A stretch of 64,000 nucleotides of DNA, taken from NCBI RefSeq assembly GCF_029227855.1, contig NZ_CP074356.1; one strand, given 5' to 3'. The first letter of the stretch is position 1. Every line of letters begins with the position of its first letter. Position numbers: made by a program. The stretch comes from Escherichia coli. Lineage in GTDB: Bacteria; Pseudomonadota; Gammaproteobacteria; Enterobacterales; Enterobacteriaceae. Shown in pieces: positions 35,901 through 38,900 of this stretch.

Positions 35901-38900
35901 GCGCATAATGTATATTATGTTAAATGTGGTGGGTTTGTTCTTAAGTTCATGTGTTCCGCTCTTTCAGTAGCTTAACTGATGAATCAGTCAGCAGCTCTTG
36001 CCGTGCAAGCTACGCGGCGGTTCGTACCAGATTGGCCACCTCCATCTCCTGGTTCGCTTTCCCCTCCCCCCGGTAAACCTCACCCAACGTTAATTAATGA
36101 TGCCAGTATGTGGGCGCTATCCTTGTATGTAAAATCCACTGACGATTACGCCCATCTGTGAAAAAAAACTCACAATGCCATTCGATGCATCTCCATACTG
36201 AACGAGGCGTTATCGTCTTTATCGCCCCGTAGTGGATATCAGAAAATCAATCAGGGCCTTCACTCTTTTCGTTTTACCCGCGTTTTTGGGGTAATAGAGA
36301 TACACTGGCGGGTAGGTTTTCCAGTAGCTCTCCATCACCGGAATAAAGCGCTCCCTGTCCGGCTGTAACTGCCAGACAGGCTCAAACAAGCGCCCAATTC
36401 CCAGCCCGTTACGGATCCCGTCTGCCATAACGTCAATATCGTTGCTGATTAACTGCCCCGGCATCTCAACGGTCAACTGCTCACCGCGATCGTTCAGGAG
36501 CAGCGGAAGGATGCGGTTGTTGGTGATAAAACGGTAACCAATCAGCTGGTGATGACAGAGATCTGCCGGCACTTCAGGCGTTCCATGTCGGGAGAGATAC
36601 GCTGAGGATGCATATAATCCTTCTCGAAACGGTTTCATTAACGGTCGGGCCACCACCCCTCCCTCAAGAATATCGCCAAAACGGATCCCCAGATCAAAAC
36701 GCTCTTTGATGATATTCACGGTACCGTCGTAGACCGAAATTTCTAACTGTATACCCGGATATTGCTGACAGAATTCTGCCATCGCAGGCTTAAGAATTAA
36801 CAGGTAGGCAAAACGCGAGAGCGTAATTCGCACCATCCCAGAGGGCTCCTGATGCTGGTCGCGAATGCTTTCAAGCGAGTTTTCCAGCGACTCCACCGCC
36901 GCAGCGGTCTGTTCCAGCAATAATTGACCGGTTTCCGTCAGCTCTATACGGCGGGTCGTACGCACAAAAAGCGGATGGCCGATATACTCTTCCAGCAGCT
37001 TTAGTGCATTGCTGACGGAGGGAGGCGTAATTTCCAGTTTCCTTGCGGCTGCCGAAATATTGCCCTCCCGCGCAATGCTCTGGAAGATGCGAATCTGGTT
37101 ATAAAGAGCGTTATTCATAATGTTTTCCTAAGCAATTCTCGCCTGATTATTAAGTACAGTCTAAAAATACTTAAGTCAATGACCCTCTAATCTTCCTGAA
37201 ATACGCCTCTTATACTTTAGTCTCTTTCTACTACGACCTGAGTTCAGGAGACTATGATGCGAATTTTATGTCTGGATATCCCTGCCCCTGGAGCATCGCA
37301 TGACGATACATTAGCGCTGCAGAGTTCAGCGGCAGGCTCTGCCCAAAATGTCGGTATTCAAATTTTGGACCGTACGGGGGAGGTATTAATACTTGATGGT
37401 GCCACTTTTAGCGCTAAAACTGACTTGATTGATGGCACGAATATACTGCCGTTCCAGGCTCGTTATATTGCTCTCGGGCAGTCAGTAGCTGGTACTGCAA
37501 ACGCTGATGCGACCTTCAAAGTTCAATATCTATAATTCAATCTTAAGGTGGCTATACGTCATCTGAAATTGAAACAGGGTGTGTGTGGCATGGCTACGCA
37601 CACCCTAGCAACTCAGAAATGTGAATCTCATTATTAATGAGGAGTGGTTTGTATTTGGAGCGCTATGAAAAATCACATAATATCTAAACGATCAATAAAC
37701 AACAGTAGTTAAACTTACTGTTATTTAAAATATTTACTTTGTAGCAAGGTTTTCCTATTAAAAGAGAACCAACATTTATTACAAACGCATTAAGTCTGGA
37801 AACCCGGCGAGTCGCCAATGTATTAGCAACATTTACTGATTGTCTGATGTAACGGTTTTCCCGCTTATCCTCTTAACACATGGAGAATGCATCAGATGCA
37901 AACTACGCGTACCCCCTACTCTATTTCCTTTATGGCGACAGTGTTACTTTTATTGCTCTTTGCTTGCCATAGTACCGTTGCCAACGCAGCTGTCGCACTG
38001 GGTGCGACGCGGGTAATTTATCCGGCAAACCAGAAACAGGTTTTATTGCCTGTCACGAATAATGATCCTGCCAGTGTGTATCTCATTCAGTCATGGATAG
38101 AAAATGCAGGTGACCAAAAAGACACCCAGTTTGTCATTACCCCACCGCTTTTTTCCATGCAAGGTAAAAAAGAGAATACGCTGCGGATAATCAACGCCAC
38201 TAATCATCAGTTACCAGGCGACCGTGAAAGCCTGTTCTGGGTTAATGTTAAAGCTATTCCTGCTATGGAAAAAGATCAGAAGAATGAGAATACATTACAG
38301 CTGGCAATTATTAGCCGCATAAAAATGTTTTATCGCCCCACGAACCTGGCAATGGCACCTGAAGAAGCGCCTGCAATGCTTCGGTTTCGTCGCAGCGGCA
38401 GCAAACTCACTCTTATTAATCCAACGCCCTACTTCATTACCGTAACAAATATGAAAGCAGGAAATAGCAATCTCCCAAACACCATGGTGCCGCCAAAAGG
38501 TGAAGTATCGGTGGATATCCCGCATGCTGCAGCCGGGGATATCAGTTTTCAGACGATCAATGATTACGGTGCATTAACTCCGCGTATTAAGGCAACCATG
38601 CAGTAAGCCAGTGACCTAATTAATAATAAACTCAATCGGAATTAATAATGACAGCCTTTCGTGCCGCATTTAAGGCATATCGTATGCATCAGGTGTTACT
38701 ACTGCCTCGCTTTGCACGGCTTACCATTGCCCTTGGCTTAGCAACTGCGGTTTTTCCCGTTGACGCAGAGTATTATTTTAATCCACGGTTTTTAAGCAAT
38801 GATCTTGCTGAATCTGTCGATTTATCCGCCTTTACTAAGGGACGCGAGGCACCACCTGGTACATATCGGGTCGACATTTATTTGAACGACGAATTTATGA

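Follow-up and report, generated by a model that had tools for sequence, protein, structure and literature searches.

A C/T-rich tract beside the dif site of Escherichia coli, probably relic flanking DNA with a permissively oriented KOPS at its core

Gene content of the hipA–LysR spacer and identification of dif

The window analyzed here (the whole stretch of 64,000 nucleotides) contains a spacer of 397 bp (35822–36218) between hipA and a LysR-family gene, which are convergent. Genes were assigned by an ORF list and by mapping across the RefSeq annotation of E. coli JNEC-KY178, which is 100% identical to the window in this region. Both the size and the setting of the spacer agree with the first-pass annotation, as does its statement that no convincing ORF is present: PGAP calls no gene in the spacer, the Pfam search is empty, and the ORF of 60 amino acids belongs to no family. 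The features referred to below are the following.

17520–17533, minus strand: Ter-site core GATGTTGTAACTAA, TerC-like, 18.4 kb left of dif
34499–35821, plus strand: hipA, toxin kinase, the upstream convergent gene (JNEC-KY178 RefSeq annotation mapped across; ORF list)
35822–35897, plus strand: 3' flank of hipA as far as dif, conserved across E. coli
35898–35925, plus strand: dif, XerCD chromosome-dimer resolution site (exact 28/28 match, unique in the window)
35926–35974, no strand: first 49 bp right of dif, present also in SW4848, a strain with a short spacer (loci aligned to the window with BLAST)
35975–36218, no strand: strain-variable single-copy segment of 244 bp that holds the tract (genome counts; absent in SW4848)
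36037–36085, plus strand: reported C/T-rich tract, the 49-nt string quoted in the first-pass annotation
36062–36069, minus strand: KOPS GGGGAGGG (consensus GGGNAGGG), found by motif search and reading towards dif
36075–36187, no strand: sub-segment of 113 bp, 90–92% identical to intergenic DNA upstream of an Enterobacter aldo/keto reductase gene
36219–37118, minus strand: LysR-family regulator gene, the downstream convergent gene (ORF list; JNEC-KY178 annotation)

The decisive context, which had been overlooked, is that dif lies in the same spacer. At this site, in the replication terminus, chromosome dimers are resolved by XerC and XerD. The sequence GGTGCGCATAATGTATATTATGTTAAAT occurs once and without mismatch in the window (35898–35925) and consists of the XerC arm GGTGCGCATAA, the centre TGTATA and the XerD arm TTATGTTAAAT, the latter on the side of the tract. 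The same sequence has been given as the experimentally confirmed dif of E. coli (PMC3025954), and dif has been described as adjacent to hipA (PMC5638614). The window 28-mer is thus identical to the experimentally defined site and lies beside hipA as it does on the K-12 map, and the 27-mer that recurs at every breakpoint of the spacer is E. coli dif. The tract is no part of dif but sits 112–160 bp past the XerD arm. None of the RefSeq records examined annotates dif, and the chief value of the analysis is accordingly a corrected reading of an apparently empty spacer, which holds a key cis-acting site that standard annotation leaves unmarked. Neither dif itself nor the polarity of the KOPS motifs around it is new, both being textbook knowledge.

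In comparison with other genomes, dif separates a hipA flank that is conserved from a right flank that is hypervariable. Of 5426 complete E. coli genomes, 5284 match the spacer over its first 104 bases. Homology to K-12 breaks off exactly at 35925 and picks up again at 40073, and between these homology blocks K-12 carries 670 bp of unrelated DNA (a yneL remnant). The LysR-family gene has orthologs of 91–95% identity in Klebsiella. The hipA–LysR spacer is a mosaic. Further to the right, homology to other LysR-bearing strains stops at 37299, after which the window contains a fimbrial operon whose major-subunit gene is truncated; past the equivalent position three of the compared loci (L002, L004, and L005) carry a cluster of glutamine amidotransferase, aldo/keto reductase, and amidohydrolase genes.

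Polarity of the terminus region

All 11 KOPS motifs (GGGNAGGG) in the window converge on dif, four of them from the left, on the plus strand, and seven from the right, on the minus strand. Ten of 11 Chi sites show matching polarity around dif, and the GC skew, at +0.11 to +0.16 immediately to the left of dif, is about zero or negative on its other side. The site thus lies at the polarity junction of the replichores, where KOPS, Chi, and GC skew all switch. The Ter-site core at 17520–17533 is located about where we take TerC to be expected. A metagenome scan with the 23-mer core of dif yielded 120 diverse dif loci, in which 124 permissive KOPS stood against 11 non-permissive ones, confirming the KOPS polarity rule.

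The leading strand to the right of dif is the minus strand, which bears G-rich polar motifs and so leaves the plus strand C-rich there. The dif context accounts in this way for the strand bias around the tract, and it also accounts for the extreme structural variability of its surroundings. One block further to the left departs from the general pattern: at approximately 16000–26000 the GC skew is −0.02 to −0.10, although a positive skew would be expected left of dif, and the lone misoriented Chi site (24311, minus strand) falls inside this block, which may represent an inversion or a recent acquisition.

Composition and conservation of the C/T-rich tract

The tract is present on the plus strand at 36037–36085; the interval originally assigned to it, 36036–36088, includes extra flanking bases. 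Its description as almost exclusively pyrimidines was too strong, as 38 of its 49 bases are pyrimidines (78%; 26 C and 5 G) and the longest unbroken pyrimidine run has 15 nt (36057–36071). The core of 33 nt at 36039–36071 reaches 88% pyrimidine. Within the 64-kb window the tract ranks first by pyrimidine segment score and, among 49-mers, by C content. It also has the highest C-minus-G value of any 50-nt stretch (27 C, 5 G), and when extended to 78 nt (31 C, 10 G) it remains among the top six or so windows for C over G.

The chance level of this composition was estimated from 200 first-order Markov simulations of 64 kb each. A 49-mer holding 38 or more pyrimidines, or as many purines, was seen in 76% of the simulations, 26 C or G in a 49-mer were reached in 17%, and the C–G excess of the tract was matched in 4.5–8%. 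From these frequencies it follows that the pyrimidine bias lies within chance and that the C excess is marginal. The unusual pyrimidine richness claimed for the tract consequently does not hold up; only its excess of C over G is marginally unusual.

The tract is identical in all seven E. coli strains sampled, but since overall divergence is low this invariance is no evidence of constraint. In two other contigs, which are more divergent or error-prone, the C6 run is replaced by C5; these are a metagenome contig and an assembly with several further single-base deletions, the only places where C5 was found. One C5-bearing contig is 94% identical overall, with C6 to C5 as its single change in the tract. 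A phase-variable C-run was considered and rejected, as among the seven complete genomes it is an A8 run that varies in length and not C6. A G-quadruplex, i-motif, or H-DNA structure was likewise rejected on inspection of the sequence by eye: the purine strand has only three runs of at least three G, the sole mirror repeat is CCCCTCCCC (9 nt), and the tract was judged too short and too interrupted.

A KOPS within the tract

On the plus strand the core of the tract contains CCCTCCCC at 36062–36069, the reverse complement of the KOPS GGGGAGGG. The motif thus lies on the leading strand and points 5' to 3' towards dif, which is the permissive orientation, and it is kept in every copy of the tract that was seen. 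With a distance of 137 bp from the XerD arm it is the KOPS nearest to dif on either side, the closest one on the left being 2969 bp away.

KOPS are recognized by the gamma domains of FtsK and orient its loading and translocation towards dif (PMC3384302, PMC2800217, PMC3140498). They occur at a density of about one per 12 kb with a skew of 1.0 in the dif region, and one KOPS is bound by three gamma domains (PMC3384302, PMC3140498), although in vitro the gamma-domain trimer binds a single KOPS weakly (PMC3384302). FtsK halts at XerCD and activates XerD (PMC3384302, PMC2800217, PMC3140498), and the duplex beside the XerD arm matters for this activation (PMC2673442). The motif in the tract resembles known KOPS in being an exact match on the leading strand that points to dif and belongs to a perfectly polarized set of 11. 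It differs from them in its unusual closeness to dif (137 bp, compared with a genome average of one per approximately 12 kb) and in being located in DNA that most E. coli lack, and it accounts for no more than 8 of the tract's 49 bases. By its motif class it is a candidate for use by FtsK.

Distribution and origin of the 244-bp segment

The tract is part of a segment of 244 bp (35975–36218) bounded by TTA at 35972–35974 and 36219–36221. Scored at a coverage of at least 80%, the segment is carried by some 455 of the 5426 complete E. coli genomes (approximately 8%), with a median of one copy per genome and a maximum of two; in the remaining genomes (approximately 92%) it is deleted or replaced.

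Several deletion derivatives exist that arose independently. In SW4848 exactly 35975–36218 is missing, with TTA at both junctions, and Res13 has a different deletion that extends into LysR. A contig with a 56-bp deletion immediately before the segment (L152) was also found. Among LysR ortholog loci of Klebsiella and other enterics homology ends near the LysR stop, and only one locus (L012), whose LysR ortholog is 89% identical, extends beyond it, having 13 nt after the stop (AGACGAT-AC) in common with the window and also carrying dif about 320 nt downstream of LysR. Because L012 shares these 13 nt, the long form of the spacer appears to be ancestral and the short form to have arisen by a deletion of 247 bp between 3-bp repeats.

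Part of the segment has a recognizable counterpart outside E. coli. The 113 bp at 36075–36187 match DNA flanked on one side by an aldo/keto reductase gene and on the other by a LacI-family gene, with a small ORF, on Enterobacter mori plasmids and on a Logan contig (L006 5001–5112; L149 2112–2223). The last 30 nt or so of this stretch are also found upstream of the same reductase in Klebsiella (L008 5001–5108), about 2 kb from the Klebsiella dif. The C-rich part (36037–36074) has no counterpart in the matching Enterobacter DNA. These alignments suggest an old dif-adjacent reductase cluster of which only a stump may be left in E. coli. The idea that the tract is a relic of an older rearrangement, one of several proposed in the first-pass annotation, is in fact supported by the presence of the segment in about 455 of 5426 genomes, the differing deletions, and the partial Enterobacter homology.

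Other sources of the segment were considered and rejected. A phage origin was dismissed for lack of any phage match, and a plasmid origin was dismissed as well, the matches in the plasmid collection being chromosome-sized E. coli records and the partial match to Enterobacter plasmids. A scan of species-representative genomes with the conserved 21-mer at 36140–36160 gave a single match, in a Clostridia bin, which was treated as chance since only the 21-mer itself aligns. A metagenome contig from ENA (L150) carries at approximately 836–870 a variant of dif whose central region is altered (TGTGCGCATAATCTATCTTATGTTAAAT); it has the window-type right flank on one side and unrelated DNA on the other and may be a hybrid site left behind by an integrated element.

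Interpretation of the tract and alternative readings

We consider it probable that the tract is non-coding relic DNA flanking dif, with a permissively oriented KOPS as its core. The gamma domains of FtsK would read this KOPS and FtsK would load there, pump DNA towards dif, stop at XerCD, and activate XerD. The remainder of the tract has no detectable sequence-specific role, and we infer that the element is otherwise neutral and tolerated because its polarity is permissive. Against this reading it must be held that some 92% of complete E. coli genomes do without the segment, that deletion variants whose nearest KOPS is 0.9–1.1 kb away evidently survive, and that the KOPS explains the bias of just 8 tract bases, the bias of the others being within or at the edge of chance.

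The most serious competitor, which is also compatible with a KOPS in the tract, is that the tract serves as a Rho-utilization (rut) site. RNA reading through from hipBA would cross dif and expose a C-rich, G-poor, unstructured stretch on which Rho would load, ending transcription short of a collision with the convergent LysR gene. Such sites have no strict consensus and are defined by function. In likeness to them the tract has the C-rich, G-poor composition expected of rut RNA (approximately 60–80 nt), heads the 50-nt windows of the 64 kb for C over G, and follows a stop codon, the spacer between hipA and LysR being free of predicted intrinsic terminators. Most of it is predicted to be unpaired in the minimum-energy fold of the plus-strand RNA, and likewise in the centroid fold, in an ensemble that is diffuse (frequency of the minimum-energy structure 0.0001). 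It differs from functionally defined rut sites in being known here from its sequence, its C excess is marginal against chance, and the 92% of E. coli that lack the segment nevertheless terminate hipBA. The open-access literature contained nothing linking hipA to bicyclomycin-sensitive termination, and on balance we regard a rut function as rather unlikely. Far less credible is a structured or small RNA gene, a small protein gene, or the remnant of one. The ORF of 60 amino acids (35979–36161) does cover the tract and there is one weak promoter-like site on the minus strand (36133–36105), but Rfam 15 at E ≤ 10 returned only a chance hit of 20 nt on the dif hairpin, and the fold z-scores against shuffled controls are −1.3 for the plus and −0.8 for the minus strand, so that the structured RNA envisaged earlier found no support. 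A coding relic was rejected on the empty Pfam search and on the ORF having no family; its five database hits are all to the same DNA or to the partial Enterobacter counterpart, and since the C-run is C5 or C6 the reading frame differs between copies. Equally hard to credit is that the segment is a miniature transposable element or the scar of an insertion sequence at the TTA that forms the LysR stop. The TTA at both junctions relative to SW4848 would fit such an origin. The segment lacks terminal inverted repeats, occurs in E. coli as a single copy, and matches no phage, and the 13 nt that L012 shares after the LysR stop point to an ancestral long form; a MITE or insertion-sequence scar was rejected on the missing terminal repeats, the single copy, and the ancestral long form.

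A further question is whether the core of the tract is a selected landing pad for FtsK, that is, whether the proximity of a permissive KOPS (about 140 bp) to XerD is itself under selection. The complete E. coli genomes fall for the most part into four classes of right flank.

K-12 type, 3044 of 5426 complete genomes: nearest right-hand KOPS at +116
Window type, 455 of 5426 complete genomes: nearest right-hand KOPS at +137
L023 type, 814 of 5426 complete genomes: no KOPS within 2.5 kb
L019 type, 935 of 5426 complete genomes: no KOPS within 2.5 kb

In favor of selection, the K-12 and window types, which are dissimilar and together make up about 64% of the complete genomes, each have a permissive KOPS near dif, that of the K-12 flank (yneL remnant) being GGGCAGGG at 116 bp from the XerD arm (L003 4220–4227; L016 4628–4635). 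Such closeness is also rare elsewhere, only 1 of 110 diverse dif loci having a permissive KOPS 150 bp or less from the XerD arm. On the other hand, the two remaining common classes, which make up about 32% of genomes, lack a KOPS in the nearest 2.5 kb, the deletion derivatives of the window type lose the close KOPS (nearest right-hand KOPS at +0.9 to +1.1 kb), and in the broad sample KOPS show no enrichment in the 300 bp nearest dif, their density there being if anything below the overall 0.14 per kb. In addition, the comparison was made post hoc, from four flank classes. A general rule of dif-proximal KOPS was rejected on the single locus of 110 within 150 bp and the lack of any rise in density, and the two dif-close KOPS of E. 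coli are a curiosity (approximately 0.002, post hoc) and no evidence of selection. We therefore think it improbable that the closeness was selected and retain the reading of a KOPS in relic flanking DNA. If closeness were selected, it would inform how FtsK reaches XerD, although the present evidence does not favor a general rule; what may still interest specialists is that a permissive KOPS recurs no more than 140 bp from the XerD arm in E. coli flanks that are unrelated. The resemblance seen by eye between the K-12 and window right flanks (ATTGGCC...CCTGGTT...TTCCC) was discarded after local alignment against shuffled sequences (z = −0.8). The L023-type flank is related to the K-12 flank and is without the KOPS GGGCAGGG.

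Insertions at dif in other strains

In other strains filamentous prophages lie directly at the same site, which is what a dif site would lead one to expect. Strains B1-56, MEC2025-PR, and E300010 (L021, L022, and L025, respectively) carry filamentous-phage genes directly on the XerC side of dif, coding for a Zot-domain protein, a secretin, and a replication protein of the II/X family. This placement is typical of elements that integrate by Xer recombination. The flanks of dif in the window are hotspots of structural variation and in this respect resemble IMEX and other dif-integrated DNA. Those inserts are located on the XerC side, whereas the 244-bp segment is on the XerD side and has neither a second dif-like site nor phage homology. 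A different insert, of 2.77 kb, abuts the XerC arm in MLI106K3 (L004 1233–4000), whose dif has one mismatch, and in Ch1 (L028), at a position equivalent to 35895/35897 of the window. It encodes a SIR2-family deacylase together with a truncated ISNCY transposase and could be defence-type cargo lodged at dif.
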